The notes: generated by a model from the letters alone, not told the origin. Positions 14,401 through 44,632 are shown, counted from the first letter of the stretch. The stretch: DNA of 64,000 nucleotides from an uncultured delta proteobacterium (GCA_963733195.1 CAVTCR010000010.1:1-64000), one strand, 5' to 3'. Program-made: numbers and translations.

Positions 14401-14475
14401 TACGGTTGGTTCACCGAAGGGTTTGATACGAAGGATCTGCAAGAGGCAAGAAGACTGCGAGAAGAGTTAGGCTAA
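11419..14475 (+). CDS. OmpR-type wHTH (Trans_reg_C) + AAA ATPase + TPR regulator, multiple frameshifts; start approximate
   Basis: FGSFRLD...AFAVLRYLV...SKNELLDAVW, HRRGYRFIA, LVGRESEL, GEPGIGKT, LEDLHWSD, TDGNPLF, C-terminal QQAKSLELRA...YGWFTEGFDTKDLQEA. Confidence 0.85.
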
Positions 14476-27000: not shown

Positions 27001-27263
27001 GAGAGCGGTTGCCGCTTTTCCTGCAGCAGCGCATGTTCAGCCCTATCTTTGGCAAACTCACTCAGGGTGAAGACATGAAGTCCAAGATACCCATCCCCTG
27101 CTTTCGCCACGGCTTGTTGTAAATGTGCAGCAAGGAATTCATGCGGTACGAGAATGGTTACGGGTAGCAGCACATCAGCCGCCTTGAGCGTTTGCACTGC
27201 CGTCACCAGGGCATTCTGCAAAACAGTGAACGACTCACTCACAAACAGACGCTGTTGCGGCAT
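24063..27263 (-). CDS. addB: AddB-like PD-(D/E)XK nuclease subunit
   Basis: SVSALETYARCPFRYF, GRIDRID, LDYKSG, QLPLY, CRPCPFPLIC Fe-S cysteines; coupled to addA. Confidence 0.85.
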   Translation of the reverse strand: MPQQRLFVSESFTVLQNALVTAVQTLKAADVLLPVTILVPHEFLAAHLQQAVAKAGDGYLGLHVFTLSEFAKDRAEHALLQEKRQPLSSLTASLVIKKLLADAGAQNYFSVLASQPGFLRHVVMTLQEFKQARISPQGLQYFLDRTHPTGVYQQRSESLQELYTSYAQFLAAQHLYDDADILERAASVLEECHETTPLLIYGFSDFSPLQQHVVEMAVRDRDTLVFFPWRPGAAYEAATASLGWLTSLGFHRTTLSAEGTPQTSLTQLQTRLFEPISFLVDEKRQKYDHSVLLLSAPTVSREVREIARVIFTLVRERNLRFDEIAIFVPNLGIHGPLFYETLTALGVPCSFTKGLSLLQTQAGQSVSLLWRVLAEEYARTRVLEFLSVARPPFSELLGASAMYAQLARWDLLSQEAGIVRGAEEWRTRLAQLQARNVPDDTETSPQELVDQQVLRTFIEFMEDFLADTEHLPRLNSWNGWEVQMRAVLSRYVSPSLYTDQVAAVFARLGQLTLLDESISLREWGKIVTDALASTPAVLANDEPTSKVFVGDLASAQGMQFRAVIIPGMVEGQFPQTVRQDPLLFDSERQHLSEVLLCDLRQRNRVVEEERLAFALTLQSATEYVVFTYARQDQASGRVQVPSTYLLRVVEALSGQSVSLPELKDWCVHVPLSPLWSDPPSTALDTIEFHWASVARSQETGNSSLLGYLPGTAPFFSSALTAIHQRWDLPFLTAFDGVLTEETTTTKLNTYLFPTRMLLSVSALETYARCPFRYFLTAILGLSVQDDPEQLLTIRPRDRGTLLHMILHDFFSRLQREHRLPVRSQPQEPLRRLLTEVADIHCATFARTKVTGLPLLWELEQERIRAQLLFLLQWEYERDDTFVPIGFEIPFGREEASLEAPFFPAQLMSLVGNEADPVFIHGRIDRIDITSDGQQARILDYKSGKPIRGRFAGGMALQLPLYLFAARLLRPDLQWVGAEYVTLRPAAVRKENTSTFSPDTWSEELEVLQTLVGAITHGIRTGCFPNTPDSCRPCPFPLICGSQAETRTARKQGDARLAFLQKAKSTP

Positions 27264-27319
27264 ACGTTTGTGCCTAGAGGTTTCTCAGGCCGTTGGCAAG
27301 AACCTCTCCTGCTTCAAAT

Positions 27320-27388
27320 CCCACAACTTTCCCATAACTTTCCCACAACTTCCTGCTCGTTTCGTACATCTTCTCCGTGCATGACGCC
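27320..27388 (+). promoter_or_regulatory. Conserved upstream element copy A: triple CCCA(C/T)AAC at 11-bp period, then AAC-N17-CATC
   Basis: Repeat units at 27320, 27331, 27342; same architecture at 29870 and 37420. Confidence 0.75.
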
Positions 27389-27521
27389 GATCCTGCAAGG
27401 AGCACGCACGATGAACAGCGCAATTCGCGCTCCGCCTCCGATCATCAGCAAAACCGGCGCGGAACAACGACAGAACAATAAACACTCAAGCAACACAATC
27501 CACAGTAAGGAAAATACAATT

Positions 27522-27986
27522 ATGAAACACACATCTTCATGGGATTTCGTCGCTGGCTACTCACCAGTGCTCTCACCTTGGGTCATAAGCACCATCGCTA
27601 TGGTGAACACCCCTGGTTTCGCACAAGTCATTCCTGGCGATCCTGACCACCTCAAGTGTTACGAAGTGATTCAGGACCAAAATCCTGCGGGCCAAAACGA
27701 AGTGGATCTGGTCAATAAATTTGGATTGGAACCTGGCTGCCACGTCGGCAAAAAGGCACGCCGTTACTGCACCCCAGCCCGCAAGTTCATTGAAGGTGGC
27801 AATGGCGATGACCCGCGGGGCGTTGCCCTCAACACCGACTTTACCTGTTATCGACTCGAATGCCCAGACAGTCCCATTCGAGAGTTAGCCATCGATGACC
27901 AGTTCGGCAACCGCCACATCCGCATCGACGATGCCGTGATGCTGTGCACGCCAACGGAGTTGGAGGGAGTGCAGGTAGAGGACTAA
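27522..27986 (+). CDS. Secreted cysteine-containing hypothetical protein (DHxKCY...DQFG repeat-type domain)
   Basis: AAGGA RBS before ATG 27522; signal-like N-terminus; two internal units DHLKCYEV...NKFG...YCTP and DFTCYRL...DQFG...LCTP. Confidence 0.7.
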   Translation: MKHTSSWDFVAGYSPVLSPWVISTIAMVNTPGFAQVIPGDPDHLKCYEVIQDQNPAGQNEVDLVNKFGLEPGCHVGKKARRYCTPARKFIEGGNGDDPRGVALNTDFTCYRLECPDSPIRELAIDDQFGNRHIRIDDAVMLCTPTELEGVQVED

Positions 27987-28061
27987 ACCATCAATACCAG
28001 AGCACCCTAATGAGTTTTGACAAGCAAGTTCGGTAAAATTCAGACCTGTGGCTCGAAGGTT

Positions 28062-28094
28062 CCCTCTCCCGCCGGGAGAGGGACAGGGTGAGGG
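28062..28094. repeat. REP-like palindrome CCCTCTCCC-gcc-GGGAGAGGG...GGGTGAGGG
   Basis: Perfect 9-bp stem plus GGGTGAGGG tail, intergenic. Confidence 0.65.
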
Positions 28095-28249
28095 AGAGTA
28101 AACGGCGGGGTTGCCGATTTTGATCGTCAATTTTCATTAGAGTGCTCTGGCCTTCCTTACCGCCGGGAACGATTTGCCTCCATTCTCCCCTTTGCGGGAG
28201 ATAGGAGAACTAAGCCTGGAAACACTGAACGCTGTAGACAATCTCACAA

Positions 28250-28556
28250 ACAGAGGAGAAAAACCATGAAAGTAGTGAATATGTTGAGATCCGCTGGAGC
28301 TCTTGGTTGTACACGGTGGTGGAACCACAACAGAGCCGATGATGTCTTGAGGGGATTACCGCGCTGGTGGAGAAAAAAGAGCATTGCCGGCACGGCACGG
28401 TGTGCAACGCTGGTTGGTTTGAGTGTGTTGGTGGCCACGTTGTGTCTGCAGCCATCACTGGCAGTCGCCGTCAAGGACGTGCCGTATGGCGAGGACGGTT
28501 CACCCCCCGACAATGAAGCTCAGGCCGACGCGGACGCGTTCAACGACGCAATCTTA
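28250..28556 (+). repeat. 307-bp leader duplication, copy 1 (RBS plus 97 codons)
   Basis: Matches 37527-37833; 89/97 identical amino acids. Confidence 0.95.
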
Positions 28557-29723
28557 GAAGGGGACGTGGAAGACCTGGGGGTGTGGTACCAGGTGAAGTT
28601 CTGCGGCTGGTATCGACTGTCCTTTGCCGACGATATGGCCAGCTTACCGGCGGGATCGGCGTCCTACGACTACTGGACAACTAACGACGATCAGCGGGCT
28701 CTCGGGGCCAAGATCAAGGTGATACGCAACTCCGATAGGGCGGTGGTGCACGAAGCATTCACGCCTTGGACCGGGGTCGACATCGGATGTACACCCTCGC
28801 TCACTCTGAACTCGGCGGAATCCTACGAGGTGCGTATTTATTCGACCGCCAACGTGAATAGCAATACGATCACCGTGAAGAACGACGACGTAGACCAAGA
28901 CGTATACTATTCGGTTGCCCGGTCCGCCTTTACGCCCACCGCATCGAACACGATTAACGTATATACCGGGACCCATGCGGCGTGGAATATTGCCGGCGCT
29001 GCAGGCTGGGCAATGTCACGCCGTAACGGCGGGCTCAATGGCGAAACGTTCGTGGTGTACGATCAGGCCTGCCCTGGTGGCACAAGCAATTGTTTGAGTG
29101 GCGGCAATAACTATATCGTCACCGATACCAGCAAATTTGTCATCGTGCACGAACTGGGACACGCGCTGGTGAAAAAGGCCAATGCTGGCAGCGGAGCTAA
29201 TGTTAGCACTGCCCTGGTAAATGCGACCTGTCCAAATGTGGGTGGCACGCATGATTTCAATTCGCTCGAGTGGCAAAGCGGTGCCGCTAACGAAGGCTTC
29301 GCCAGCTACTATGCGGCGGTGGCGTGGAATCAAACCCAGGAGCCGAATTGTACCTATGTGCTACACCGCTGGAACGACTGGAATCTCGATGGAGTTAACA
29401 GCGATACCAGGGTGTTCTCCTGCGAAGGCGCAGCTCCTGGCGAGAGCGATGCCGAGGACTACGCTGGCCAGTTCTGTGGGGCGGCTTCCAACCAGGGCAC
29501 CCAACTCGACTGGATGCGGTTTTTCTGGGATCTCGACAACAAAGAAGGGCTAAACACCACGGACATTGTCGATATGTGGGTTGACTCGTCACCGGATACG
29601 TGGACCGCGACCGGCGTCGGTTCGGGTGCCGGGTTTCCGAGCTTTGAACTCGAGGCCGCCGCTGACCGACTCGGTTTTGGCACAGCTTGGAACAATCAGG
29701 AATCCAACGGCTCACTTCGCTGA
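28266..29723 (+). CDS. Secreted zinc metallopeptidase-like protein with extended leader
   Basis: VIVHELGH (HEXXH), downstream ANEGFASY, FFWDL; hydrophobic signal segment near aa 48-68. Confidence 0.75.
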   Translation: MKVVNMLRSAGALGCTRWWNHNRADDVLRGLPRWWRKKSIAGTARCATLVGLSVLVATLCLQPSLAVAVKDVPYGEDGSPPDNEAQADADAFNDAILEGDVEDLGVWYQVKFCGWYRLSFADDMASLPAGSASYDYWTTNDDQRALGAKIKVIRNSDRAVVHEAFTPWTGVDIGCTPSLTLNSAESYEVRIYSTANVNSNTITVKNDDVDQDVYYSVARSAFTPTASNTINVYTGTHAAWNIAGAAGWAMSRRNGGLNGETFVVYDQACPGGTSNCLSGGNNYIVTDTSKFVIVHELGHALVKKANAGSGANVSTALVNATCPNVGGTHDFNSLEWQSGAANEGFASYYAAVAWNQTQEPNCTYVLHRWNDWNLDGVNSDTRVFSCEGAAPGESDAEDYAGQFCGAASNQGTQLDWMRFFWDLDNKEGLNTTDIVDMWVDSSPDTWTATGVGSGAGFPSFELEAAADRLGFGTAWNNQESNGSLR

Positions 29724-29869
29724 AACCCGGCCAAAGAGGAGGAGGGTGGGTCGCATCTCACCCTCTCCTCGACTGAAGCGGGAAAAACGTCGCATCGTCA
29801 GGCTACGAAGGTCAGGAGACAGTAAGCGACGAAAACAGCATTGTTTCGTCGCTCAATCGCTGCGCAAAT

Positions 29870-29950
29870 CCCACAACTTTCCCACAACTCTCCCACAACT
29901 TTCTCTCCCTTTCACACGTCTTCTCCCTACGCGACCTCAGACCTGCAGGA
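29870..29950 (+). promoter_or_regulatory. Conserved upstream element copy B: triple CCCACAAC, AAC-N17-CGTC, CCTGCAGG
   Basis: Repeat units at 29870, 29881, 29892. Confidence 0.75.
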
Positions 29951-29985
29951 AAAGTAGCAAATTCAGGAATTCTCAGGAGGTTTTT

Positions 29986-31662
29986 ATGCATTTATCACTT
30001 TGGACCATTCTTCGCTTCGCCCGGAAACTTTCTTTCGCTCTGCCTCTTATCGGGCTCAGTATTCCTGCGAACCCAACATTGGCACAGACGAACAACTGTA
30101 GTGCTCCCTATTGGCAGGACACATTGCGATGTGCTGTGTTTCCTAACGATCCACCGCAAGCAAATTTCAACACGCGTCCTCTGAATGCTTCAGAGGTAAA
30201 AGACTTCTCACGGGTCTTTCTCAATAACAATCCCGCCGTTCGTTGTGCAGACGGCACTCGCCCCCTTATGTACGTCGACAAGGCTGTCGGTGCGCCCTCG
30301 AACAAGTGGATTTTCTCTATGACCGGCGGCGGCTCCTGTAATGCTCACGACAGCAACGGAGACGGTGTCTTCGACGATGCTCAGGAATGTCTCGATACGT
30401 ATAGCGATCCACAAGAGCACGGTGAGATGGGAACTGCGTCCCAACCGCCGATGAGAAACCTCGAAGGGATCAATCGTCCTGATACACTGCGAAATCCGGT
30501 TTTCGCCGGCTATAACCGCGTGCGCGTGCAGAAGTGCAGCTACGATCGCTACAACGGTCGCGCCGCGTACGAAGCCGCAGGTGGCTACTTCCATGAGACA
30601 GCTCCGACTGGCGTGGTTATTGATTTCAACCTGTACCAGCACGGCTACCTGATTATGGAAGAAGCGTTAGCGGCCCTGCAGAGCGGTCTGACTTACACTA
30701 CGTGGACCGTCAGTGGCGCCGGGGGCCCAAGGCGTGTTATCGAAGAGCAGGAATCCCTCCCACCGCTTGCCGACGCCGAGATCGTTCTCTTCATTGGCCA
30801 CTCTGGGGGCGCGCACGGGCTCTTTCATAATATCGACTACCTCGCAACATCACTTGCAGCTATACCCGGATTCGCAGGCGATGTGCGAGCACTGTTCGAC
30901 GCAAACTTTCTTGAGTCGATCGAGAATGAAGCGGCATTTGCTACTGATGCCTTCGGGACCCCATTGGATGGCGATGCCTACAGCAACATTTGGACAGGAT
31001 ACACAATCGGTGATGGGATTCCCTTTGCGTACGATGGAGCAACGCGCTATGCCACTAGCGATATCGTCGAACAGTACAACAGTTGGGCCGCAGTGTTCGA
31101 CTCTTCGTGTCTCGCCGCCCATACTGCCACTGGCGACGACTGGAAATGTCGAGATCGCTATCATGTACTCTTCAATCATATCGCTACCCCCTTCTTCTTC
31201 CGCGAGGACTTTACCGACCCCAATCAGGAGCATATCAATCACGGCAATGGACACTTCGTCGCATGGGGGACGTGGGATGCATATTCCCATTGCCCCGCAG
31301 GCTTCAACCCTTGCCCGCCACTCTTTACGGTTGATGAACACCGTACCCGACTGACACAACAGTTTGAGACACTTCTCGAAGGATCGTCCTCCCGCTCAGA
31401 ACTTGCAACCGGTGTAGACCCTAGCCTTGGCGTCGGTAACTTTCCGACCTTCTACGCATGGATGCCCAATTGCGGCGTTCACGAAGGCGCCTACGACGAC
31501 GCGTCTTTCTATAATACCGCGGTGTCGTACAAAACCTTTACCCACTCGATGCGACAGTGGCTTGAAGGCTTCATGTGGGTTGGGCGTACGAACTTACGCG
31601 GCTCGCGTGTCGACGGCCGGGCTGACAGTAGCGGCAATGTGATGACCAGTACGTGCCCATGA
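29986..31662 (+). CDS. Secreted pectinacetylesterase/Notum-family hydrolase
   Basis: AGGAGG RBS before ATG 29986, signal peptide, CADGT, TGGGSC, YNRVRVQKCSYD, GHSGG nucleophile motif. Confidence 0.78.
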   Translation: MHLSLWTILRFARKLSFALPLIGLSIPANPTLAQTNNCSAPYWQDTLRCAVFPNDPPQANFNTRPLNASEVKDFSRVFLNNNPAVRCADGTRPLMYVDKAVGAPSNKWIFSMTGGGSCNAHDSNGDGVFDDAQECLDTYSDPQEHGEMGTASQPPMRNLEGINRPDTLRNPVFAGYNRVRVQKCSYDRYNGRAAYEAAGGYFHETAPTGVVIDFNLYQHGYLIMEEALAALQSGLTYTTWTVSGAGGPRRVIEEQESLPPLADAEIVLFIGHSGGAHGLFHNIDYLATSLAAIPGFAGDVRALFDANFLESIENEAAFATDAFGTPLDGDAYSNIWTGYTIGDGIPFAYDGATRYATSDIVEQYNSWAAVFDSSCLAAHTATGDDWKCRDRYHVLFNHIATPFFFREDFTDPNQEHINHGNGHFVAWGTWDAYSHCPAGFNPCPPLFTVDEHRTRLTQQFETLLEGSSSRSELATGVDPSLGVGNFPTFYAWMPNCGVHEGAYDDASFYNTAVSYKTFTHSMRQWLEGFMWVGRTNLRGSRVDGRADSSGNVMTSTCP

Positions 31663-32872
31663 CGCACCTCGCTGCACAGACTGTGAGCGTAGGGTGCGTC
31701 GACATCGGAATCCGGATTTTCGGCATCGGGTGCCGGGGCCGTTGCCAGCCGTGGCGGAGATTGAAGCGGAACTGACGGCGTTACTCACCCCCGCGTTGTT
31801 CGCGCCGCGCCAGCTGGAACGGCGCGACCCGCGCAATCCCGCTCGGCGGATTCGGCTGCGCGCGCGGATTTTGACGTTACCGGTGATGGTGGCCCTGGTG
31901 GTGAGTTTGGTCTGGCGGCGCTTGGGCGCCATTGCCGAGGTGCAGCGCGTGGTAGTGCAAGACGGCTTGCTGTGGGTATCGCCGTTGCAGGTCAGCGAAC
32001 AAGCGATCGCCAAACGGCTCGATACGTTGCCCGCCAGTGCGCTTGGCAGCGGTGTTTACGGAGGTGAGTGCGCGCTTGCAGGCCCAACCCCCACCGCAGC
32101 ATCCCTGGCCTGGAGCGCTGGACGGAAGTGCGGGCGCAGTTTCCGCGCATTGCCATGGTCGATGGTTCGACGCTCGAAGCGCTGCGCAAAAAGACTCAGC
32201 CCCTGCAAGCTCAGCCGGGCCTCGTGCTCGCGGGCCGGATGATGGTGATGGTCGAAGCCTTTACCCATCGGCCGCTGTGGCAACTCTATCACCGAAGATG
32301 CGGCGGCCAATGATAAACGCTTTGCCACGGAAATTCTCGCGGCCGTGCCCGACGGCGGGTTGTTGGTCTTTGACTTGGGCTTCTTTAGCTTCTTATGGTT
32401 TGACGATTTTACCGACCAGCAGAAATACTTCGTGACCCGCTTGCGCCAGAAGACCGCCTATCGCACGACCCAGTGTTCTCAGTACCAGCCCGTACTATCG
32501 CGATGAACTCATTGAGGTGGGGCTGCATCATTCCCATCCCTGCCGTCACCCCTTACGCTTGGTCTCAGTCTTATGGCGCGGGCAGTGGTATCGCTACCTC
32601 ACCAACGTTCTCGATCCGACGCAGCTCTCCGCGCGCCACATTTGTGAGTTGTATCGGCGGCGCTGGCGTATTGAAGATGCCTTCTTGGTCACCAAACGCG
32701 TGCTCGATCTCGCCTACCTGTGGAAAGCCTCGGCCAATGGCGTCCAACTCCAACTCTATGCCACTTTCCTCTTCTACCTCGTGCTTCTCAATGTCTGTCA
32801 GCAGGTCGCTCAGAGCCTCAACGAACCGTTGGAACGCATCTCAGTGGAGATGGTCTTTCGCGCTTTCTACCA
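31657..32872 (+). mobile_element. IS4-family transposase element, frameshifted and apparently 3'-truncated; boundaries approximate
   Basis: MVDGSTL, VFDLGFFS, YFVTRL, YLTNVLDP, LYRRRWRIEDAF..TKR (YREK motif); no matching right inverted repeat found. Confidence 0.85.
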
Positions 32873-32954
32873 GGTCGCGACCCCACCCTACATGATTCGT
32901 CACTACATAATCCTTGTTTCTACGCGGGGACACCACACTCAGAAAGGAATAGTT

Positions 32955-34775
32955 ATGCAACCGATAATCGCTCTCATACGCACTTGGTTAAAGACTTCAA
33001 TTTGTTTGCTTACGCTATTGTTGATTCAAAGTCAGGCTGGCATGGCGGTGGCAACTCTTGATGGGGCCCAATGTGGGGAAGACGGCCTTTGCAGGATGAA
33101 CGGGTGCCCAGACCCAGACCCCGATTGCCCGAACGACGATCTCCCAAACAATGGCTCAGGTGGTGGCGGTGGCGGTAATTCAGCGCATTTCACGATCGAA
33201 GGGAAAGTGGAATTCTTCGCCGCCTATCACAGCGGTCAACGTGTCGGACAGGTTCCGAACGGGCAATCGCCGTTGCCTTACCTCCATGTCTGCGCGTGGG
33301 ATAAGGATGATGCTGTCGATTTCGAATTCACCGATTACCCCACCGCGCCCGGGAGCGGAGGAAACGACGAATTCCTCGGTTGTGACAGGGCTGACGTCAA
33401 CGGGAACTTCCACATCAACGCCTCGTTTGCAACAGGCGGAGAGAGTGAGCCTGACATCTATCTGGTCACTCTTCTTTGCGACGACACCGGAGAAGGGGCT
33501 GCCTCGGCAGCGGACGTATGCGTGCGGATCAATGCAGAAGAAGCAGACGCCGACTACCCAAGAAACGCGAAGTCGATCTGGTCGCGCGTGTACGCGGACA
33601 TCAACCCCAACGGGACCACGGTGACTATCTCGTGGAATCTATCGTGTCCGAATCGGAGTGGGTTGAATTCCGCATCCGTGACGTGTGCCGGAGACACAGA
33701 GCCTGACAACTGGGCCGAGTCCTCTCCCGGAGCCGCTGACTGGTGCGCGTGCCAGGACGAGCCGTGGAAAGAATGCCTGACCACAATCCCGTCCTGTTCG
33801 ACCTGCGGAGACACGAACTCCCGATACGGCTGCAACAAAGAGGCGGTTCATGTGTATCGTGCCGCGATCGAACCCTACGTGACATGGGGCACCAACAAGC
33901 CAGCCGCCGACAGCACCTTCTCAAAAGACTGTGACACTGCCGACATCTGGGATGACGGGGGAGACGATCACTGCGAGATGGATGAGTGCCAGGACGAAGC
34001 CCGATTTCACCTGTCGAATATTCAAGCAATAGCAGGAATGGGATACGAACAAGAGGGATCCGATGGGACAGGTGTTTGCGAGCCGGACCCCGCAGACCCC
34101 CAGAATGGGGCAGGTGACTTTGATCGGATCTGCATTCAAACGCCAGATCAACCGTTCAGAGTCGTCCACGAATACGGACACGTCATCCAAAACCGGTGGC
34201 TGTGTGACCCCAGGGACGCCAGGAAGCGTGTCAACGGAAGTTCCGCCCAGAACCATGCGACTCGAGAGGGGTGGGCGAACTATGTCGCGTCGAAGGCCTG
34301 GTCAGTGGATCGGTATTGTCAAGAAGGCAGCGGCGGCAACGATTGCTACTCCATGGAAGCAGGTGGAACGAACAACGGGGACGAAGTGAGTGTCGGCCAG
34401 TTCTTCTGGGACCTCGGTGACCCCGTTGATGATGCTGGCTGGACCGAAACAGAGGACCGGACATTTCAAGAGATCCGCAATGTCTGGAGTGCTTTTCCAA
34501 ACGGGTCGGGTCCGTCACAGACACGCGAGTGCGATCCAGGGCCCCCGCCGGGTATCGATTGCTCAGGCAGCGCTGGTCACCAGGCGAATGGGGTGAACAT
34601 GTTGGACTACTCCTACTGGTTTAAGGTGAAGATGACGGGGAGACGGCGGTTGACGACTTCATATTGCGACACGCTGAGACAGAACGACCTGACTATTCAC
34701 AGTGACTCGCTCGCAAGTGGCGATTTGGATGACATCTGTCGTTCTCTGAGTTGGACGGCTATCCCCGTACCGTAG
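32955..34775 (+). CDS. Secreted Cys-rich zinc metallopeptidase-like protein
   Basis: AAAGGA RBS before ATG 32955; signal peptide; CGEDGLC...CPDPDPDC repeat; VVHEYGH, TREGWANY, FFWDL. Confidence 0.75.
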   Translation: MQPIIALIRTWLKTSICLLTLLLIQSQAGMAVATLDGAQCGEDGLCRMNGCPDPDPDCPNDDLPNNGSGGGGGGNSAHFTIEGKVEFFAAYHSGQRVGQVPNGQSPLPYLHVCAWDKDDAVDFEFTDYPTAPGSGGNDEFLGCDRADVNGNFHINASFATGGESEPDIYLVTLLCDDTGEGAASAADVCVRINAEEADADYPRNAKSIWSRVYADINPNGTTVTISWNLSCPNRSGLNSASVTCAGDTEPDNWAESSPGAADWCACQDEPWKECLTTIPSCSTCGDTNSRYGCNKEAVHVYRAAIEPYVTWGTNKPAADSTFSKDCDTADIWDDGGDDHCEMDECQDEARFHLSNIQAIAGMGYEQEGSDGTGVCEPDPADPQNGAGDFDRICIQTPDQPFRVVHEYGHVIQNRWLCDPRDARKRVNGSSAQNHATREGWANYVASKAWSVDRYCQEGSGGNDCYSMEAGGTNNGDEVSVGQFFWDLGDPVDDAGWTETEDRTFQEIRNVWSAFPNGSGPSQTRECDPGPPPGIDCSGSAGHQANGVNMLDYSYWFKVKMTGRRRLTTSYCDTLRQNDLTIHSDSLASGDLDDICRSLSWTAIPVP

Positions 34776-34885
34776 ATCACGGTGGCTCGCTCCCAAGTGA
34801 CGATTTGGACGACTCTGTCCTTAAGGGATGTGGAAAACAGAGTAGCCCCGAATAATAAGGCCAATTAGCTTAGAGAGGAGATCAA

Positions 34886-36624
34886 GTGATGAATACTCGC
34901 AATAATGCAATATTCGCCTTGCCGTTGTCTCCAGTCGTAGCGTTAATCGGCTGCATCGAAGAGCGATGGCGGCGACTGGGCCATCTCATGAACTCACGAA
35001 AGGTCGACCTATGCGCGCTTGCCACGGCGCTGATTGCCACGCTTGTTGCGCACACCGCCGGAGCGCAGCCGGCGACCTACCACGACGTCGCGGCGATGGA
35101 TGCCGCTATCGTCCGGTTGGACGGCGCCGCTGGTGGCCGGATGCAAGTCCACGACATCGGAACGACCGCGAACGGCCGGCCCGTACGCGCGGTTCACATC
35201 TCTGCCACTCCCAACCTTTACGGCACCGGGGCCGAGGCCAGCATGGCCGACAAGCCCGCACTGCTGATCGAGTGCGGTATGCACGCACGGGAGTGGGCTG
35301 GTCCCGAGCTGTGCCTGAAGTACCTTCAGACTTTTCCGCTCGCCCTCCTGCTCGATCCGATCCGCATTAACGACATTCTCGCGAACGCAGACATCTGGGT
35401 GATCCCGATGGTCAACCCCGATGGGCGCGCACGCGACGACACCGCCGGTGGCGACCGAAGAAGTACACCACGAACAACGACTCGTTTATGTGGCACGGTG
35501 GCGACGCGGCAGGCTGGCGCCCCAACGCGCAGGTTGTGTCGTGCGCACGAGTCCCTTCGGCGGGTACAGCGTCGGGATCGACATCGCCCGGAGCTTCTCC
35601 ACGGGTTGGAGCATCGCCAATCCTAACGATCCTGATATCAGAGAAGATAATTGTGAGAGCGACCATTTCCACGGCTACGCGCCCTTCCAGGCGCTTGAGG
35701 CGCAGATCCTGCGGCGCTTCGTCGACAACCGGATGATCTCGATGTCGCTCTCGGTCCACTCCAACGGCCAGTCGATGGGTATCCGTACCGCATCGCTCAA
35801 CGCGATCCGCGACAACGTGATCAACCTGTGGAACGCCAAGGTCCCCTCGCTCCCGCTCACGACGGGCGCAACCGGGTCGCAGGCTAGTGGGCCAGTTTCC
35901 CGCGTGGATGGCCGACACGTCCGAGCACACCCAATGAGCCCGACATTGGCACGCGCCGTGGCGCGTCGCACTGCTGATGGAGCTGCCACCGAAGGAAGAA
36001 GAGGATGAGAACGTTGACAACTACGCCCCGCCGTATCAGTACGACTCAAACGACAGCTCGAACGGGTTTCACCCAAGCGCGCAGGTTTTCCTCGACGAAA
36101 GCTGGCAAGGCTTCATCGCCAGCGTACAACATCTCGCCGAGCAGACCGCCGCCCCTGGTGCCCACTCACGCCCGACACCCTGACGCCGTCGGCGACATGC
36201 AGCCGCGACGTCGGCATTACCGGCGCGAAGATCGCGGTGTGTAACGACTGCGTCGGCACTCTCGCCGAGTCGCCGTTCGGCTACTACGGCTCTCGCCAGA
36301 CCAACACCGCCGGCTCCCGCCGCATCGTCTACCGCATCCAGAAAGCTTCGACAGCACTACGGCAGCGACGGTACAAGTGGCGGTCAGCATATCCTCGAAG
36401 CCGACCGGGTCTTAGTACTTCGGGGCGTACCCACGGATCTCGTTAACACGACGAGCTTCCCGGTGGCGCCGCTGGCTTCGGGGGCGGCGGCGACGGGCAG
36501 CGTACCGTTCACGTTCGTCGCCGGCCGCGATTACATCGTGAACATCAACGCGACGGCGACGTCGTACACCGACGAGACGAACACGCAGAATAACTACCGC
36601 CAGTTCCGCTTCATCGTTCCGTAG
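34886..36624 (+). CDS. Secreted M14-family zinc carboxypeptidase with C-terminal beta domain (multiple frameshifts)
   Basis: GTTANGRP, CGMHAREW, IPMVNPDG, GIDIARSF, SVHSNG, LMELP across frames; ends ETNTQNNYRQFRFIVP*. Confidence 0.8.
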
Positions 36625-36825
36625 GGGTAGTGCCGCAGGCGGGCGTACGCCGGTCGAGACTTCCGTGCGCGTGGGGCGGCTGAATCTCCGCGGCTGGCGC
36701 GTCGACGGGTGGAGCGACGACGGTGGAAATGTGATGACGAGTACGTGTCCATAGCGCATCGAGAAAACTTCTTGTGACCTACATCAACAATTTCTAGGTA
36801 TGAGTTCGAGAAAGGACATGCGACA

Positions 36826-37223
36826 ATGAAACTACGACTCTTCTTCTTATTGGCTACCCTCTTCGCTTTCCTAACAGCGCCAGTGCAAGCGCAGCATCCT
36901 GAAGAAATACGCAGGGTCGCTGACACGGAATGGGAAGCCGCTCGTCAGGAAAACGATCCCATCGAATTTGTCCTTCCCGTTCACTGCCCCACTCGGCTCC
37001 AATAAAGGGAGTCGTTGAAAGGGACATGTCATTCTTCACCTCACCGCTCCACTCGGTTCCACGAAAGGGAGCATCACAGGCGCTGCGGTGCTTCAGTTCA
37101 CTCCTCCCATCGGTTCCGACAAGGGAACCGCTTACTGGGCTCATCGAAGGCGTCGCTGAGTGCGGCGATACTGGGAGTCTGCCGGGCAGAGATGGTTCTT
37201 TCCGCCACACGCTATCAGCATAA
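36826..37223 (+). CDS. Small secreted hypothetical protein with three TxP(L/I)GSxKG repeats (frameshifted)
   Basis: AAAGGA RBS; signal peptide MKLRLFFLLATLFAFLTAPVQA; first frame stops at 37005, repeats lie in other frames. Confidence 0.5.
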
Positions 37224-37419
37224 CCAAACTGATCTGGAATTCTTAGCTGATCAGGGGAGTTTGATATCACCACGCGTGAGTGGTTCAGCCTGAGTTTCAT
37301 CTTGCCATATCTTGAGCAGGACAATTGAACGGTTAACAAAAATTTCCGTTCCAATTATTGCTGGCATGACGCGGGGCGACCAACTGGTCGCCCCGTTGCT
37401 TTTTGTGCCCTGCCGAAAT

Positions 37420-37502
37420 CCCACAACTTTCCCACAACTCTCCCACAACTTCCTGGGTGTTTTCGAGCGTCTTCTGCTTCTCAAGACATCACCCCTGCAG
37501 GA
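37420..37502 (+). promoter_or_regulatory. Conserved upstream element copy C: triple CCCACAAC, AAC-N18-CGTC, CCTGCAGG
   Basis: Repeat units at 37420, 37431, 37442. Confidence 0.75.
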
Positions 37503-37526
37503 AGTGTCAAATTCAATACAACCGTT

Positions 37527-37833
37527 ACAGAGGAGAAAAACCATGAAAGTAGTGAATATGTTGAAATCTGCTGGAGCCCTTGGTCGTACACGGTGGTGGA
37601 ACGACAACCGAGCCGACGACGTCTTGAGGGGGCTACCGCGCTGGTGGAGAAAAAAGAGCATTGCCGGCACGGCACGGTGTGCGACGCTGGTTGGTCTGAG
37701 TGTGTTAGTGGCCGCGCTGTGTCTGCAGCCATCACTGGCAGTCGCCGTCGAGGACGTGCCGTATGGCGAGGACGGTTCACCCCCCGACAATGACGCTCAG
37801 GCCGACACGGACGCGTCCAACGACGCAATCTTA
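37527..37833 (+). repeat. 307-bp leader duplication, copy 2
   Basis: Matches 28250-28556. Confidence 0.95.
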
Positions 37834-39198
37834 TCGGGAGTCGATCCTCATCCAGACGCAATCAACACGGCTACGTGTGACTACCACGACACGACTTCTC
37901 CCTACAGCGCAACGTACGCTGATTTTGCATCGAACCTCACAGGGCCGAAAGGAAACACTGGGTTGACAATCCAAAATCAAGTCGAGTATCACCACGTCGG
38001 CGGCGCGTCAGTCGTCATTATTGAAGATGGCAATATTACCCAACACCATTGGTATGGCTGTCGAGATCGGGCGACAGCCAGTCGCACCACGGCAAATACG
38101 ATCTATCAGGCTGCTTCGTTGTCGAAATTTGTCAGCTCGATCGGCCTTGTGATTGCCGACCGTAACGGGGTGGTCGATCTCGATCGCACTGTGCAGTCCT
38201 ACGCGAACAGCTATCCGGACAGCTTACTGGCGGAATGGGTAGATGACAAATTTCGCGGCAACACTGAGAGTTACCCACAGAGTATCCCCCTGCGCCGCTT
38301 ACTCAACCACACCGCGGGTCTTGATACCCACGGCATCGGCGCGTGGGACCCCAGCGATGTCCCGACTATGCGCGACATCATCATGGGCTCGAACGACTTC
38401 GACGGTTTCTTTGACGGTGGTGTAGAGCCGCTCTTTGCCCCGAAGGTTTCGATTGAATACTCCGGTGGCGGCTTCATCGTCGCCGAGCATATCCTTGAAC
38501 TGGAGTCACCCCTCTCGTTCAGGGAATACCTCAAACAAAACGTCCTTGATGCAGCAGGGTTGACACTGAGTACCTTTGACAAAGCACTGACGTCGATGAC
38601 CAATCTCGCGCGCCCTTTTAGCCGCACAGTCGGTGACTCCAGCGTTTTGCAGACTAACGTTAAAGCGGCAGGCGGGCTCTTGGCCAATGCGCGCGAGTAT
38701 GCCGAACTTGTTACGGCTCTCGTCAACGGCGGACTCACAGACAGTGGACATCGTGTGATGGTGCAGTCCGATATTAACACCATTCTGACGCCGGCCGCAC
38801 ACGGAGAGTCGACCTTCGCGCCATGTGCCACTCCAAGTGAGACCAACACAATAGAAACGCCGATCGTTATCAAGGGGATAGAGATCCCAGCCTCCACTTC
38901 TATAACCGAGACATGTGTAGGCGGTGAGTTTCGCCGCGTGCTCCTCGATGGCAGCGACTGGTCCGGGCTCGGAGTCGAACTCTCCACTACTGTCGAGTCA
39001 GACGGCTACCCGCGCACCGTCGATCACGGTGGCTCACAAACCGGTTCGCGCACTTACTTTAAGATCGATCGTCGCACCGGTGACGGCATCGTTATTATGA
39101 TCAACGGAACAGAAGAGTGGGTTGATGGCGACGGGTTCATCTATGGTGCTGAGCCGTTACTTGAGGAAATTAAAGTTGCGTATAATGCGGCATATTAA
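37543..39198 (+). CDS. Secreted serine hydrolase (beta-lactamase/class C-like family) with extended leader
   Basis: YQAASLSK (SxxK), LLNHTAGL, YSGGGF, AAGGL, HGGSQTG. Confidence 0.85.
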   Translation: MKVVNMLKSAGALGRTRWWNDNRADDVLRGLPRWWRKKSIAGTARCATLVGLSVLVAALCLQPSLAVAVEDVPYGEDGSPPDNDAQADTDASNDAILSGVDPHPDAINTATCDYHDTTSPYSATYADFASNLTGPKGNTGLTIQNQVEYHHVGGASVVIIEDGNITQHHWYGCRDRATASRTTANTIYQAASLSKFVSSIGLVIADRNGVVDLDRTVQSYANSYPDSLLAEWVDDKFRGNTESYPQSIPLRRLLNHTAGLDTHGIGAWDPSDVPTMRDIIMGSNDFDGFFDGGVEPLFAPKVSIEYSGGGFIVAEHILELESPLSFREYLKQNVLDAAGLTLSTFDKALTSMTNLARPFSRTVGDSSVLQTNVKAAGGLLANAREYAELVTALVNGGLTDSGHRVMVQSDINTILTPAAHGESTFAPCATPSETNTIETPIVIKGIEIPASTSITETCVGGEFRRVLLDGSDWSGLGVELSTTVESDGYPRTVDHGGSQTGSRTYFKIDRRTGDGIVIMINGTEEWVDGDGFIYGAEPLLEEIKVAYNAAY

Positions 39199-39281
39199 TC
39201 ATTAAAAGTGATAATCACAAAACCTTACCGACGCCCGCAATTTACTCTTTAACTTTTTCTTTCCCTGTAAGGAGATTAGCC

Positions 39282-39479
39282 ATGATACACAAAAAAGCCC
39301 AACAGCTTCTTCGCACTGCCGTGACACAATTCACCGTAGGTGGAGCCGCAGGTTCAGCGACTGTTGCTAGTGGCAACACACTGCGGGCGCGGTTTGCATT
39401 TACCAATTACTCGACCGAAAGTGTAAACGTTATTGGTACACATCACGATGCAGCTCATCAGGATTGTCATTCTGAGTAA
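39282..39479 (+). pseudogene. Short gene remnant ending in a REP-like repeat
   Basis: AGGAG RBS; 65-aa ORF with a beta-strand-like segment that runs into a palindromic repeat. Confidence 0.35.
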
Positions 39480-39525
39480 CGCGAAGAATCTCTCGGAGAG
39501 GTCCTTCGCTACGCTCAGAGTGATA
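39465..39525. repeat. REP-like palindromic element (TGTCATTCTGAG...GAAGAATCT...CTTCGCT...CTCAGAGTGATA)
   Basis: Nested inverted repeats between convergent units; related partial copy near 51659. Confidence 0.65.
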
Positions 39526-39692
39526 TTGCCCTGGGTTAATCTCTTATGGCTTGATTTCGCCGAAAACTGTATCAGAGTCGGGCCCTGAAATCTGGGTTTT
39601 CAGGGCCGCCTTGCGCGGAGAGGCACAGCTTATCTGCATCCTCAGCTCACCTTACTAAACCACCTTTGTCGCTTTGGTACGGATGTGGCGAC

Positions 39693-40661
39693 TCACGCCG
39701 CACATGCCTTGAGAGATTCTCGTTCGCCGAATTCTTGTGTGAATTGCTCGCGCAGGCGAAAGATACGGGAATAAACGGATCCAGTGGTTGCGTTCAGCAG
39801 TCGAGCGATGTCCTTATACGGGGGAGTCAATTTGTACGTCCGCAGCTCCTCGACAAGGCGTTCACGCTGGCGGATACGTTTGGCAAGAGTGTGTTCTAGA
39901 GCATGCTTTTGAGCCAGGAGTTTTTTACTGTCAACAAATATTTTCCCCAGCGGAAAGAAAACCTACCTGCCTATTAAGCTCTTGCAGCTCCTTTTGTCGC
40001 AGGACGATCCATCCCCACACCGAATCGAGTTCGTCACGCAGGCGAGCAAGCTTTTCATCTTTTTGTTTGAGATTGTCTTGCACCTCAGCTAGCAACATCA
40101 ACGTATCGTGAACGGTTCGTCCGGAGATGCTCTGCCAGCAAACAGATATCTTCCGAGTTCAGTGGATACTCCAACAGTGACAACAATTTGAGATGCAACT
40201 GTTCCTCTGGAGTAAGAGCCTTCAGGGTTTCGGTTGTCATCTCCATCAACATTTCGTCACTGCTCACTCTGTCGACAGCAATTGATCCAGGGAGAATGTC
40301 TTCTAGGGTCCGACTTCCATCGTCTGAATCATCGACTGGAGTTTGCAAGGATATTGTTTCGATTTCTTTGCGGGTTCGTCGCCATTCTACGAACAAGTGC
40401 TTCAACACGTAGTAGGATAGAAAGGTACGAAACTGAATACTGTTGCGACCTTCGAAGGTTTTGAGGCGGATAAATATACGGTCTTTATCAAAGACATAGA
40501 GGTAAAAATCGCCGGCCTCCTCGATTGGGGTTCCATAGATTTTTACTGGAAAGTTATAGATATCCTCACCATAGGTTTCCTGGAAACGTCTGCCGTGCAA
40601 CCGTATCACCTGCAGCGCATGCATTGAGGAACGCGCAGAGACCGACGTTGTCTTGGCGCAT
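39693..40661 (-). CDS. Atypical ECF-like sigma-70 factor with long insertion in region 4 (frameshifted)
   Basis: GGAGG RBS; ACAAGDTVARQTF, region 2-like RLKTFEGRNSIQFRTFLSYYVLKHLFVEWRR, LTPEEQLHLKL, and distal HTH YKDIARLLNATTGSVYSRIFRLR read manually near 39750-39818. Confidence 0.75.
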
Positions 40662-40906
40662 AGAGTAATGCACCTCCCTGAAGAGAGAGCTGGGTCATAT
40701 CATTGCTCTTTGTGGCTTGTGTAGTGCCGCGAGTTCGGCTTTCTAACCTCAGGAAGGAGCAATTTCTGGACCGTGCGGTTAGGAGATGTTGCCAGTAGAG
40801 AGAAGGGCCGGTCTCGATTATCGCTGATGTTGCGATTTCAGATAGCGAGGAAAATCCTGTGAGAAATCAGGCTTGTAAGCTTCTTAGGTAGGATACACCG
40901 CCTTCC

Positions 40907-43900
40907 TCAGCTCCCGCTCCGTAACTCCTCTAGCAGTGTTTTCGCCTCACGCAGGTCAGGAGTGTCAAATCCTTCAGAGAACCAACTGTAAACTTCAGAT
41001 AACATTGAGTGTGCAGCGTGTTGCCTCCCCTGTTGTTGCCAGAGGCGAGCAAGGCTCGATAGAGGCGCGCAGTTCTAAGGATTTCGCCTGTTGTTGCCGG
41101 GCAATGTCGATGGCCTTTAAGAAACAGGCTTCGGCTTCGCCTTGGGGGTCGGGAGTCGGGGACGGAGGTCAGTTATTGACTTCCTTGACTTTGCTCTGGA
41201 CTTGCTTTTGACTTGCTCTTGACTTGCCTGAAACTTGTTCGAGACTTGTTCGAGACTTGTTCGAGACTGTTGGAGGGTCAGTTCTCCCTGTAAGCCGATA
41301 CAACTCTGCCTCAAACGTCCGTTCCTCGGTTCGCTCAACCGGCAGCGACTGCGTCAGTGAGCGCTTGCAGCGCAGACTCGACCTGGCCGGTTTTGCTATA
41401 GGCGTCAACCAGCAACAGCTGATATGAAACCTCCCCAATCCTGACCCCTGCGACCTGCTGTCGTTTAAGCCCGGTCTGCATGAGGGCAATACCTTCGTCA
41501 CTCTTGCCCTGCATGACTAACGCCCATCCCTGAAGTACCATCCCCATCGCCAGCAAATGAACAAACCCGCACTCCTGAGCAAACGTGCGCGCTGCTTCGG
41601 CATGGCGCTCTACTGCTTGAAAGTCACGGCAACAGACATGGAGCGTCGCGGCTAAGTTCAACGCCAAAGCCCGGCCATAGGGGAACATCGTCTCGTGCGC
41701 CAGGGCTAATGCCTGACGACTGCACTCTCGCGCCTGGTCCGGGTAGCCCACTATCCACAACAGTACGGCAAGATGAGCGAGACTACTGGCACGTGGGTCT
41801 TGCCCCGTCAGAAAGACTTTCGGTTGCGGCAGTTGCGGATTGTACAACGCGAGACTTTGTTCAATATGTGGACGAGCCGCGTCAAACTCGCCTAGGTGAA
41901 ATAATGGCGTGCCGATCCCCAGGTGAGCCTCCGCTGCGAGTGCAGACATTCCGGTCCGCTCGACAAACTCCAGAAACTCCTGCGCTGCTGCGCGTCCGGC
42001 CTGCAGCTCACCGCGCAAGAGATGGAAATTCCGTAATCCCCACAGCGCCGCGAAACGTTGCGGTGAATCACCAACGACACGGCTCAGGTCACGAATTCGC
42101 CCGTACGCATGCTCTACCTCTGGCGCCGCGAAGCCTCGGGTATGCATCAACGAAAGACTAAGGCCAACCTGCAACGCCAGCTCTTGCTGCGTTCGTTCTG
42201 GAGACTCCGGGAAGTGCGACAGCAGCGCAATACCCTTGTTCAGATGATCGATGGCTTCCTGATAGGCGTAGGTCCACATCGCATTCTGCGCCGCTTGTCC
42301 GAGATACTGCACCGCACGGAGGAAATCTCGGCCCAGTTCAAAGTGCACGCCGAGTTCCACTGCCACTTCACCGACTCGGCTCTGATACGCCCGTTCGAGA
42401 CGTTCACCAATCCGTAGGTGCATCCCCACTCGTCGGCTTGGCGGCACATGTTCATACAAAACGTTCTGGTAAAGCGCATGAATGAAACGATAGCGCGCAA
42501 CGAATGTTCCGTCTGGCCACTCGGCAGTCCCAACCGCCTGGAGGAACTGCTCTCTCTGCGCCAAGTTCGCACATCGCATCTCAACAGCTTCATCGTCTCG
42601 TCCCAATCCCGCCGCGACGGTCGCGGCGGAAAACTCCATCCCCGCTACGCTCGCGGCCGTTAATACTTCTTGTTCCTCGGCGCCCAATTGTTCGATGTGG
42701 TGCTCGATCAATTGCCGCAGGCTCTCTGGCACCCCAATTGTTGCCCCGTCCAGCATCTGCCGCATGCGTTCTCCGTTCGCACTATCGAGCATCCCCTGTT
42801 GTTCCAGATAGTCAGTGACATTCACCATAAACAACGGATTTCCCTCGGCATGATGATAGACAAGCTGTCCCACGCCAGCGGGTAATGCTCTGTCAGCGAA
42901 CCGCCGGGTGAGATAGTGCTCGACCGCCTCGGCGGAGAGAAAACTCGGGGTGAGTTCATGGTAATGCCCAGCACGTTGGATTTGCACGCGCAGCTTTTTC
43001 AACGGATGGTCACCTCCAAGCGTTTCCAAAGATCGGGAGGTTCCGAGCACAAACAATCGAGCAGGTTCGGGACGAGCAGCAACGACAGCAAGCAACTCCA
43101 ATGTCGAATAATCACTCCACTGCAGATCTTCGAGACACAGAATAAACGGGCGCTCCACAGTCAGTGCTTCGAATGCCTCGGCCATTTCTCGTAACATCCG
43201 GTCACGGGTCGCTCCTCCGACCTGGCGCTGAAGTGTCTCGCGTTCCGCATCACTGAGTAACGCGGGCATGTGCACTAACCAGGTTGGGGCGTGGCGATGG
43301 AGCAACTTTAACATTTCGTCTTTTTCAGAACCCCGACAGAGTCGCCCAAAAGCTTCCAGCACCGGCATATACGGTTCTCCTGCGCCGTATTGCTCGATGC
43401 ATTGGCCCCGACCCAGCCAGGGAACAGGATTTGGGGTCTGGGATCTAGGATCTAGGAATTGGTCTTCTATTTTTGATTTTTGACTTTTGATTTTTGACTT
43501 TTGACTTTCTTCCTGCTTTTGTACTCCGAACTCTTCGGAACTCTGTACCCCGAACACAAAGGTGTCGACGAGGGCCGTTTTCCCAATCCCGGCTTCGCCA
43601 GTTACGAAGATAATCTGCCGCTCACCGCTACATGCTCGAGCAAACCATTGGTGAAGTTGTACAAGTTCGGTGTCACGACCAACGAAGTTCGGGGCTTGAG
43701 GCTTGAGGCTTGAGGCTTGAGGGAAGACAAAGGCAGTTTCTGTTTCTGACTTTTGCTCTTTGCCTTTTGCCTTTTGACTTTCCTCTTGTCCTGGACTTTG
43801 GACTCTGGACTCTGGACTCTGGACTTCCGCGATAAACCGATACCCTCGTCGATGCGCCGTCTCGATGTACTGCGGTGATTTGGCGTCGTCTTCTAAAGCT

Positions 43901-44181
43901 TTGCGTAACTCCTTGATACATGAGGTCAACGTACTGTGACTCACAATCGTATCTGGCCACACCGCGCGTAATAATTCACGCTTAGACACCAACTGACTTG
44001 GACGATGAGCTAGATGGCGTAGGACTGCGAAAGCTTTCCCGGTTAGTCGCACGACGTGTTGATTCCGCCACAGTTGCCCGTTTTGTGGGTCCAATCGATA
44101 GACACCGAAGTGCAGGACTTCGTGTGGTTGTGCTTGTGGTGCTTGCTCTGCAGCTGGGAAGTCTGTTCGCGTTTTCATCAT
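40907..44181 (-). CDS. OmpR-type wHTH + AAA ATPase + TPR regulator (3' frameshifts)
   Basis: FGVYRLDP, AFAVLRHL, ETAHRRGYRFIA, FVGRDTEL, GEAGIGKT, LEDLQWSD, EGNPLF, QQAKSLELRA...WFSEGFDT. Confidence 0.88.
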
Positions 44182-44326
44182 GCTGACATTCCTCCCTTTT
44201 CGTAACGACCTTTTTGGTCACGTATCCAACAGGGTGGGTACTTATAAAATAGAAAAATCTAAGTCTAGATTAACAGGGAAAGAGGACTCTCGCAGCCTCG
44301 GAGGTTCGCTGATAAGAGATACAACT

Positions 44327-44590
44327 ATGGACTTAGTTGAGATCTACCTCCGCATCCGACGTGAGGACATCGCCCTGCTCAAGTTTGTCGTCGAATCTTA
44401 TGAAGGGATTGGTATTGTCCGAACCATCGATAGGAAAAGAGCGACGGTAGCGATCTTGGCCATGCCTGACTTGGTTGATCATATTTGGGCAGTACTGGAA
44501 TCCCTGCGCGAAGACATGGAGTGGTATGAGATTCCAGCTCCAACAGAACAGGATGATTGGCTGATGGAAAGACTGAAAAATGAAGACTGA
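44327..44590 (+). CDS. DUF4911-like small protein
   Basis: IYLRIRREDIALLKFVVESYEGIGIVRTID pattern. Confidence 0.75.
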   Translation: MDLVEIYLRIRREDIALLKFVVESYEGIGIVRTIDRKRATVAILAMPDLVDHIWAVLESLREDMEWYEIPAPTEQDDWLMERLKNED

Positions 44591-44632
44591 AAAATGAAGA
44601 ATTACCGGTTTATTGCTTTTCGATTATCTCTT

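Follow-up and report, generated by a model that had tools for sequence, protein, structure and literature searches.

The stretch of DNA analysed here (the window) covers the first 64,000 nucleotides of contig C10 (C10:1-64000) from an assembly of 6.95 Mb in 87 contigs. Proteins of related genomes carry the source label Candidatus Binatia. Between an AddB-like gene on one side and genes for DUF4911, TatC and TatA on the other, the flanks already named by a first-pass annotation of the window, lies an array of genes for secreted proteins (signal peptides were assessed by eye only). Three copies of a promoter module of about 100 bp stand upstream of genes of this array. Beyond its last gene, on the opposite strand, follow a gene for a sigma factor of the extracytoplasmic function (ECF) type and a gene for a regulator of the STAND (signal transduction ATPases with numerous domains) class. 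The module and these two candidate regulators are the main subject of this report. The coordinates of all features are collected in Table 1.

The core of the module consists of two or three 11-bp direct repeats, TCCCACAACTT, spaced one helical turn apart; each copy in the window has three. That three units of the array carry one common upstream element, as first proposed from inspection of the sequence, was borne out. A 33-mer of three repeats matches at all three sites with at most one mismatch and gives 0 matches in each of 100 shuffles. Tandem Repeats Finder reports an 11-bp period with 3.0-3.2 copies exactly at the three module sites, and an 83-nt sequence family has 3 copies in the window. 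In the aligned modules 15-16 nt separate the repeats from a C(G/A)TCTTCT box; after another 7 nt or so come, in this order, AAGACAT, CCTGCAGG, TGTCAAATT and the ribosome site. Among the 18 aligned class-A modules, which come from several genera, 16 keep the distance of 15-16 nt between last repeat and box; of the two exceptions, one has no match to the box pattern and one has the pattern at a weaker site nearer the repeat. The orientation of the module is constant, and where the start codon is readable the box lies about 55-130 nt before it. Taken as a -10 element, the box would put the last repeat at about -40 to -30, that is, at the -35 position. The AAC of this repeat sits 17 nt before CGTC (AAC-N17-CGTC), a spacing typical of ECF promoters. 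No sigma-70 consensus promoter was scored at the modules.

Between the box and the ribosome site lies a conserved palindrome or hairpin, GACAT..CCTGCAGG..TGTC. When it is modelled as an RNA hairpin (GACAT/ATGTC plus CCC/GGG), 89% of the cells pair, and one pair switches between CG (4), UA (4), UG (1) and other combinations (3). The covariation score was reached by 14 of 500 shuffles, with an RNAalifold energy of -3.4 kcal/mol. These values are suggestive only of an RNA hairpin, and a palindromic operator is equally possible. Rfam gave 0 matches at the gathering score within positions 27000-45000.

Five full modules were found in the genome to which the window belongs (nhmmer E ≤ 5e-21): the three in the window, one on contig C3, which precedes a gene for a 107-aa secreted protein, and one at C71:101449, which precedes a broken paralog of the pectinacetylesterase-like (PAE-like) gene. 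Among 55 family genomes, 9 (from 6 genera) have the repeat pair, which was present in no genome of nine other families sampled; a reversed-pattern control gave 0 hits in all 55 genomes. Scanning for the motif placed the module upstream of the same families of secreted proteins across the 9 genomes. Cargo families that recur behind the module in different genomes are DUF7450, PAE, beta-lactamase-like proteins, M10-like proteins of 421-467 aa and PMP-repeat proteins, with further recurrent families of 150-393 aa, 107-144 aa and 164-167 aa. Since the same few cargo families appear across genomes, these results point to a conserved regulon that is clustered differently from genome to genome, and not to the recruitment of new catalytic domains that had been suggested for the array.

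The linkage of module, sigma gene and STAND gene recurs in three relatives. In a sister species of the same genus (G002:C40), the syntenic locus consists of addB, a module with DUF7450, the sigma gene and the regulator, with a single unit. In a second genus (G010:C3) the order is sigma gene, three module units and regulator, and in a third (G016:C30) it is regulator, one unit and sigma gene. The array had been called expandable. Its size does differ between genomes: G002 has a single unit from addB to the sigma gene, the window 3 modules and 6 cargo genes, and G010 3 modules. HEXXH1 (HELGH), HEXXH2 (HEYGH) and the M14 peptidase gene have no module of their own. Module and sigma-like family occur together in 8 of the 55 genomes, the module alone in 1, the sigma-like family alone in 3, and neither in 43. 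The compared genomes are kin, and these counts are therefore not independent. In one relative (G003:C607, L036, 550-1262) the gene behind the module encodes, in place of a secreted protein, a canonical ECF sigma of 187 aa (Sigma70_r2 E 1.2e-13, r4_2 E 3.5e-10).

The regulator gene encodes an OmpR-type winged helix-turn-helix (wHTH) domain (Trans_reg_C, E 2e-19, residues 43-116; NCBIfam similarity to the binding domains of CadC, OmpR and PhoB), a P-loop module (AAA_16, E 5.5e-20) with the Walker A motif GEAGIGKT in the translation, and a C-terminal TPR domain (TPR_12, E 2e-8, above its cut-off; TPR_MalT matched weakly, E 2.4e-7, below its cut-off). The domain order given by the first-pass annotation was correct, but the gene is not intact in the window: its last ~130 codons, which extend to 40922, are spread over two other frames, with frame changes near 41340 and 41057. 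The 14 Pfam families matched at E ≤ 0.01 do not include BTAD, and only a low-complexity linker of about 50 residues joins the wHTH to the AAA domain. Because it has no BTAD domain, the protein is not a SARP. Tandem DNA repeats of 7, 11 and 14 nt lie inside the gene at 43427-43825 and 41176-41275; the first tract encodes the Q/K/S-rich low-complexity linker between wHTH and AAA domains, and the second encodes another such stretch near the frame-shifted 3' end. A role of the STAND gene in anti-phage defence was considered and rejected, with 0 PADLOC families.

Matches to the regulator family occur in all 31 genomes searched, with 53 in the window's own genome. Outside that genome 15 module clusters were found, of which 2 are doubtful (two-mismatch hits with neither a third repeat nor the downstream boxes) and 13 credible. 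A regulator of the family lies within about 3.5 kb of the module in 8 of these 13, in convergent or divergent layouts, where chance would give about 6% by the authors' rough estimate; adjacency of module and regulator is far above chance. Orthologs of the wHTH domain with at least 72% identity were found in six other genomes, G062 included. In the five of these that were examined for modules, the orthologs adjoin modules in G002, G010, G016 and G018 and not in G003. In a tree of wHTH domains the window regulator groups with those of G016:C30, G010:C3 and G003:C538 (support 98/97). In the sister group, the 5' end of the gene bears a degenerate 11-bp repeat, on the divergent strand, in 6 of 7 rows, and repeat-associated rows make up 10 of 15 in the joint clade versus 3 of 25 outside it. 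Each of the closest wHTH paralogs in the same genome (on C25, C41, C48, C70 and C71) likewise has a degenerate 11-bp repeat at its 5' end on the divergent strand, facing either an open reading frame (ORF) of 68-75 aa or a gene for a secreted protein. The 68-75-aa ORF (..GRVEHVVSGQS.HF.SLEELLAF..) belongs to no Pfam family and is preceded by a degenerate 3 x 11-bp repeat; it stands divergent from the regulator paralogs at C48:29600-31400 (L063), C71:9057 and C41:57725. The C48 unit is an inverted duplication, and its regulator copies carry several stops. The window itself contains a second wHTH-AAA-TPR paralog at 11447-14472, in alternating frames (tblastn pieces 2, 1, 2, 1).

The sigma-like gene was compared by means of a 60-member profile (A3) that was built after an exhaustive search; at E ≤ 0.001 the family comprises 286 representative clusters. 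The profile aligns collinearly with the PDB chains of the ECF sigmas AlgU, SigW, SigE and SigH (E 2.3e-13 to 7e-11). Profile positions 5-161 cover sigma-2 through sigma-4.1 (5-153 correspond to AlgU residues 4-150 at E 2.3e-13, and 9-161 to SigW residues 5-155), and sigma-4.2 of several ECF chains is matched by positions 273-306. Between these parts lies an insertion of about 110 residues, predicted to form a coiled coil inside sigma-4. All 33 members compared with Pfam matched Sigma70_r4_2, the best at E 2.6e-6, and Pfam r4_2 scored 18.6 against a cut-off of 25.7 on the G010 protein, a sub-threshold value. An AlphaFold2 model from the deeper alignment (predicted local confidence, pLDDT, 88.6) has four N-terminal helices, a sigma-4-like helix-turn-helix, an antiparallel coiled coil of about 50 + 35 residues and a second helix-turn-helix. 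In a Foldseek search with this model, ECF sigmas and sigma-E region 2 ranked at the top (sigma-E region 2 with TM 0.57-0.65 and E 0.16-0.49), with no match at E ≤ 0.001. By profile alignment and predicted fold, the protein is assigned as a true but divergent ECF sigma. The earlier description of an atypical, ECF-like sigma stands in this form for the family, but in the window the gene is broken into four frame pieces, each 71-95% identical to an intact homolog (P0007).

Three other approaches contributed little to this assignment. A first AlphaFold2 model, from 33 close homologs, was discarded; its N-terminal domain stayed under a pLDDT of 50, and all the Foldseek matches were coiled-coil look-alikes. 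A wide VIA-align search was uninformative on sigma-2 and sigma-4 because the coiled-coil hairpin (residues 194-301) filled the list. Neighbours of residues 1-125 in the ESM Atlas tended toward Sigma70_r2 below the bar and were kept as a lead only.

A second lineage of the sigma family was found with a different neighbourhood. Its sigma gene is followed by a gene for a protein with HxxxCxxC motifs in 6 of 7 loci of relatives (L052-L057 among them) and on contig C82 of the window's own genome. The C82 operon (C82:37160-41536, L062) consists of the sigma gene, a gene for a zf-HC2 anti-sigma-like protein and a gene for a large protein. The anti-sigma-like proteins have about 284-312 aa and two HxxxCxxC motifs (zf-HC2 E 1.9e-11 for the C82 copy). 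The third proteins of the operon have about 770-850 aa and are CHAT protease-like with TPR, Pfam-confirmed for the C82 copy only. No anti-sigma gene was found in the four sigma loci that are linked to modules. In two ECF papers searched by term, supplements aside, and in library searches, no description of a coiled-coil insertion in sigma-4 was found, and no work was found on sigma factors of Binatia.

Taken together, the window is read, at a little better than an even chance, as one copy of a lineage-specific regulon, present in some genomes of one family, in which a STAND activator would read phased repeats at an ECF-type promoter. A ligand-activated STAND protein would use its OmpR-type winged helix to bind the phased repeats head-to-tail, in the manner of PhoB and AfsR. 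The bound protein would recruit RNA polymerase to a promoter that has no sigma-70 consensus. The polymerase would probably carry the neighbouring ECF sigma, since the AAC-N17-CGTC geometry resembles that of promoters read by ECF sigmas. The modules would drive genes for secreted proteins; we infer which protein reads which element.

Several observations weigh against this interpretation. With 53 members of the regulator family in one genome, some adjacency to modules is expected by chance. Five of the 13 credible clusters, four of them in G003, have no regulator in their short contigs, the regulator ortholog on G003:C538 (66% identical) has no module in its 9-kb contig, and in the window's own genome no regulator lies within 15 kb of either full module outside the window (C3 and C71:101449). 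The presumed recognition helix, compared by eye, differs between window-type regulators and the G002:C16/G001:C514 type despite near-identical repeats. As to the sigma factor, the NCBIfam ECF model TIGR02937 was spanned over positions 1-163 of 165 at a score of 32.9 bits, below its cut-off of 42.9, and Pfam Sigma70_r2 was matched in 0 of 33 members. Autoregulation is usual for ECF sigmas; an AAC-N16-18-CGT(C/A) site is absent upstream of 9 intact sigma-like genes and of the broken copy in the window, so there is no sign of autoregulation. Within the three genera that are mixed for the two traits, module and sigma occur together in 3 genomes, the module alone in 1, the sigma alone in 3 and neither in 5, which is moderate agreement. 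Both regulatory genes are frame-disrupted in the window. No RNA runs containing the stretch were found, and the best DNA runs contained at most 0.09 of its words.

The sigma factor might also read the module alone, with the last repeat as its -35 element, CGTCTTCT as its -10 element and the extra repeats either spare or cooperative. The STAND protein would then gate the sigma, in place of the missing anti-sigma, or control its transcription. The ECF-like geometry of AAC-N17-CGTC, judged against the ECF consensus, would suit such a promoter. So would the lack of an anti-sigma neighbour in the module-linked lineage, when the paralog lineage has one, the presence of the sigma-like family in 8 of the 9 module-bearing genomes, and the AlphaFold2 model, whose coiled-coil hairpin has two helix-turn-helix units at its base. 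Many regulator paralogs remote from any sigma-like gene, however, have degenerate repeats at their 5' ends, and G018, G003 and G001 have modules, while the only paralog seen in their searched DNA is the anti-sigma-linked one. In addition, the first helix-turn-helix lacks, by eye, the basic residues of the sigma-4.2 recognition helix, and no matching promoter was found upstream of the sigma-like genes. We regard this explanation as unlikely.

Adjacency could also arise from the number of STAND paralogs and from shared ancestry of the locus, with the repeats bound by an unlinked factor, e.g., a response regulator of the OmpR family. The 53 family matches, the two orphan modules and the kinship of the genomes, which leaves the counts non-independent, agree with this explanation. 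It is nevertheless rather improbable, as modules adjoin regulators in four genera, with varying paralogs and orientations, the association with repeats is restricted to particular wHTH clades, and the layout of the triad is kept in three genera. That the shared sequences are mere leftovers of local duplication in a decaying, IS-invaded region, with no regulatory role, would fit the frame-split genes, the gene remnants, the insertion sequence (IS) in the array and the plain duplication of a leader, but is already disfavoured and very improbable, given a module geometry that stays fixed in front of unrelated genes across 9 genomes from 6 genera, a constant orientation, a box about 55-130 nt before the start codons that could be read, and the absence of the module from the reversed-pattern control.

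Beyond the preferred interpretation, in which a STAND activator reads the repeats at an ECF-type promoter, a promoter with two keys can be proposed tentatively and with low confidence. Here an ECF sigma lineage that has lost its anti-sigma would act only together with the adjacent ligand-sensing STAND activator, bound to phased copies of the sigma's own -35-like element and possibly docking on the coiled coil. If this is true, the regulon would fire only in the presence of both signals, and it would represent a new mode of ECF control with a new sigma-4 architecture.

Known regulators share parts of this arrangement. In PhoB and OmpR, tandem winged helices bind 11-bp phased direct repeats (the pho box) that replace the -35 element. 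Phased 11-bp repeats are found here as well, but the window regulator, unlike PhoB, has no receiver domain, and control would run through a STAND ATPase and a TPR sensor instead of phosphorylation. MalT is a ligand-sensing STAND ATPase with a repeat sensor that activates an uptake and degradative regulon through several asymmetric repeat boxes, and its DNA-binding domain is a C-terminal helix-turn-helix of the LuxR type. In the window regulator, by contrast, the DNA-binding domain is N-terminal and is an OmpR-type winged helix. AfsR and the large SARPs of Streptomyces have the same order of an N-terminal OmpR-type winged helix, a nucleotide-binding oligomerisation domain and TPR; the window regulator differs from SARPs in having no BTAD. 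In published work, the sites bound by SARP and AfsR regulators are 11-bp direct repeats overlapping the -35 element of weak promoters (PMC10936776). The modules likewise have 11-bp direct repeats at the presumed -35 region, with which the regulator is associated by adjacency and by clade-specific co-occurrence; it may bind them. In contrast to AfsR/SARP targets, the last repeat lies 15-16 nt, rather than 8 bp, from the presumed -10 element, and the repeats number three instead of two. An ECF sigma may take the place of the housekeeping sigma as partner, the cargo consists of secreted hydrolases rather than antibiotic clusters, and the phylum is another.

With pairs of ECF sigma and zinc-binding anti-sigma (ZAS), the family shares sigma-2 and sigma-4 parts that align with solved ECF sigmas, and a paralog lineage in an operon with a zf-HC2 protein. 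It differs from known ECF sigmas in the predicted hairpin and second helix-turn-helix inside sigma-4, and in the window lineage's lack of an anti-sigma neighbour. Searched by term, a review on non-canonical ECF sigmas makes no mention of 'coiled' or 'insertion' (PMC8999054), and an ECF classification paper, supplements aside, makes none of 'coiled', 'CHAT' or 'TPR' (PMC7826278). Dedicated alternative sigmas for cellulosome (secreted hydrolase) genes are described for Clostridium thermocellum, where they are sigma-I paralogs (PMC10575876). Sigma-I belongs to another sigma class with a membrane anti-sigma as sensor, and neither a STAND activator nor phased repeats occur there.

Two genes of the array begin with one common leader, as had been noted; the copies are 94% identical over 300 nt and 91% over 99 aa, and the duplication begins 16 nt before the ATG. 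The further idea that the leader is a module copied from gene to gene was not sustained. A search of 31 genomes found the leader in the window's own genome only, in 2 copies, with none in 30 relatives, and copy 1 has no promoter module upstream. The leader is a one-off local duplication of 300 nt and no general module. From residue 97 onward the serine hydrolase is 77% identical to a module-driven protein of a relative (G003:C722), which has an ordinary short signal peptide in place of the leader.

The array had been described as containing at least seven genes for secreted proteins. The Cys-rich protein, the two HEXXH proteins, the PAE-like protein, the M14 peptidase and the serine hydrolase were found, but the repeat protein was not; 36008-37312 contains broken frames, the PAE-type remnant of Table 1, the repeats of about 58 nt described below and a 75-aa ORF with a signal-like start. 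In addition, the M14 gene is frame-split and an IS-like insertion lies in the array, with copies on two further contigs (C15, 87%; C57, 83%). Homologs of the DUF7450 protein lie behind the module in G010 and G002:C40, and homologs of the PAE-like protein, 74-75% identical, in G003:C279 and G018:C80. An in-frame ATG at 27411, just past module 1, opens M-N-S-A-I-R-A-P-P-P and runs into the DUF7450 gene (27411-27521). Comparable coding stretches, ..RAPPP or ..RAPPQ, follow the module in G010 and G002:C40. This stretch may encode a leader peptide rich in proline, or else extend the N terminus of the protein. A 41-nt stretch at the stop of the HEYGH gene (34748-34788) is 85% identical to 38995-39035, which encodes the internal ..DGYPRTVDHGG.. 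of the serine hydrolase, and looks like a remnant of another hydrolase paralog. Non-coding DNA before module 3 (36981-37128) contains three copies of a repeat of about 58 nt, with a core of about 31 nt and a spacing of 57-60 nt.

Table 1. Position and strand of the features of the locus, in window coordinates
Feature	Position	Strand	Details
AddB-like flank	24063-27263	-	Borders the array
Module 1	27315-27415	+	Repeats 27319-27351, 15-nt spacer, box CATCTTCT 27367-27374; nhmmer E 2.8e-22
DUF7450 Cys-rich secreted protein, 154 aa	27522-27986	+	PF24247, E 3.7e-8
Leader copy 1, ribosome site and 97 codons	28250-28549	+	Heads the HELGH gene
HEXXH (HELGH) secreted protein, 485 aa	28266-29723	+	Starts with leader copy 1; no Pfam or NCBIfam family
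Module 2	29865-29965	+	Repeats 29869-29901, box CGTCTTCT 29917-29924; nhmmer E 4.9e-21
Pectinacetylesterase-like (PAE) secreted protein, 558 aa	29986-31662	+	PF03283, E 3.6e-16
IS-like insertion, 1.17 kb, DDE_Tnp_1 tail	31703-32872	+	Transposase spread over several frames
HEXXH (HEYGH) Cys-rich secreted protein, 606 aa	32955-34775	+	No upstream module; no family match
Peptidase_M14 gene	34886-36008	+	Two frames (34886-35626, 35421-36008), E 3.6e-22 and 1.1e-7
PAE-type 3'-end remnant, 33 aa	36653-36751	+	67%
Terminator-like hairpin, 11 pairs then T-run	37371-37396	+	Strong; ends just before module 3
Module 3	37415-37516	+	Repeats 37419-37451, box CGTCTTCT 37468-37475, GACAT..CCTGCAGG..TGTC element, then ribosome site; nhmmer E 8.1e-25
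Leader copy 2	37527-37826	+	Heads the serine hydrolase gene
Beta-lactamase-family serine hydrolase, 551 aa	37543-39198	+	PF00144
Predicted ECF-type sigma gene, coiled-coil insertion in sigma-4	39705-40667	-	Four frame pieces, three frame changes (near 39937, 40135 and 40588)
wHTH (Trans_reg_C)-AAA_16-TPR STAND regulator	40922-44181	-	Main frame 41335-44181; Pfam

Pervasive sequencing error was rejected as the source of the frameshifts, since open frames reach 500 aa or more in 698 cases and 1000 aa or more in 62. Given these normal long frames genome-wide, the disruptions reflect either recent decay of the regulon or local assembly errors, such as a misassembly among paralogs. Since frame disruptions affect the sigma and M14 genes as well as the 3' end of the regulator gene, and an IS lies in the array, the present copy may be partly decayed or locally misassembled.

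In all, the observations of the first-pass annotation were confirmed in part, and its interpretation is partly supported. To our knowledge, the Binatia have not been cultured, and how they regulate their genes has not been studied. If the proposed regulon is real, it would provide a testable cis-code for secreted-hydrolase genes in Binatia; the promoter modules are short and portable, and can therefore be tested in heterologous hosts. It would also define a large family of STAND proteins with an OmpR-type wHTH, some of them encoded beside their own repeat site, and would extend the principle of AfsR beyond Actinobacteria and to proteins without BTAD. The sigma genes would likewise represent a family of ECF sigmas, with 286 representative clusters, that carries an insertion inside sigma-4.

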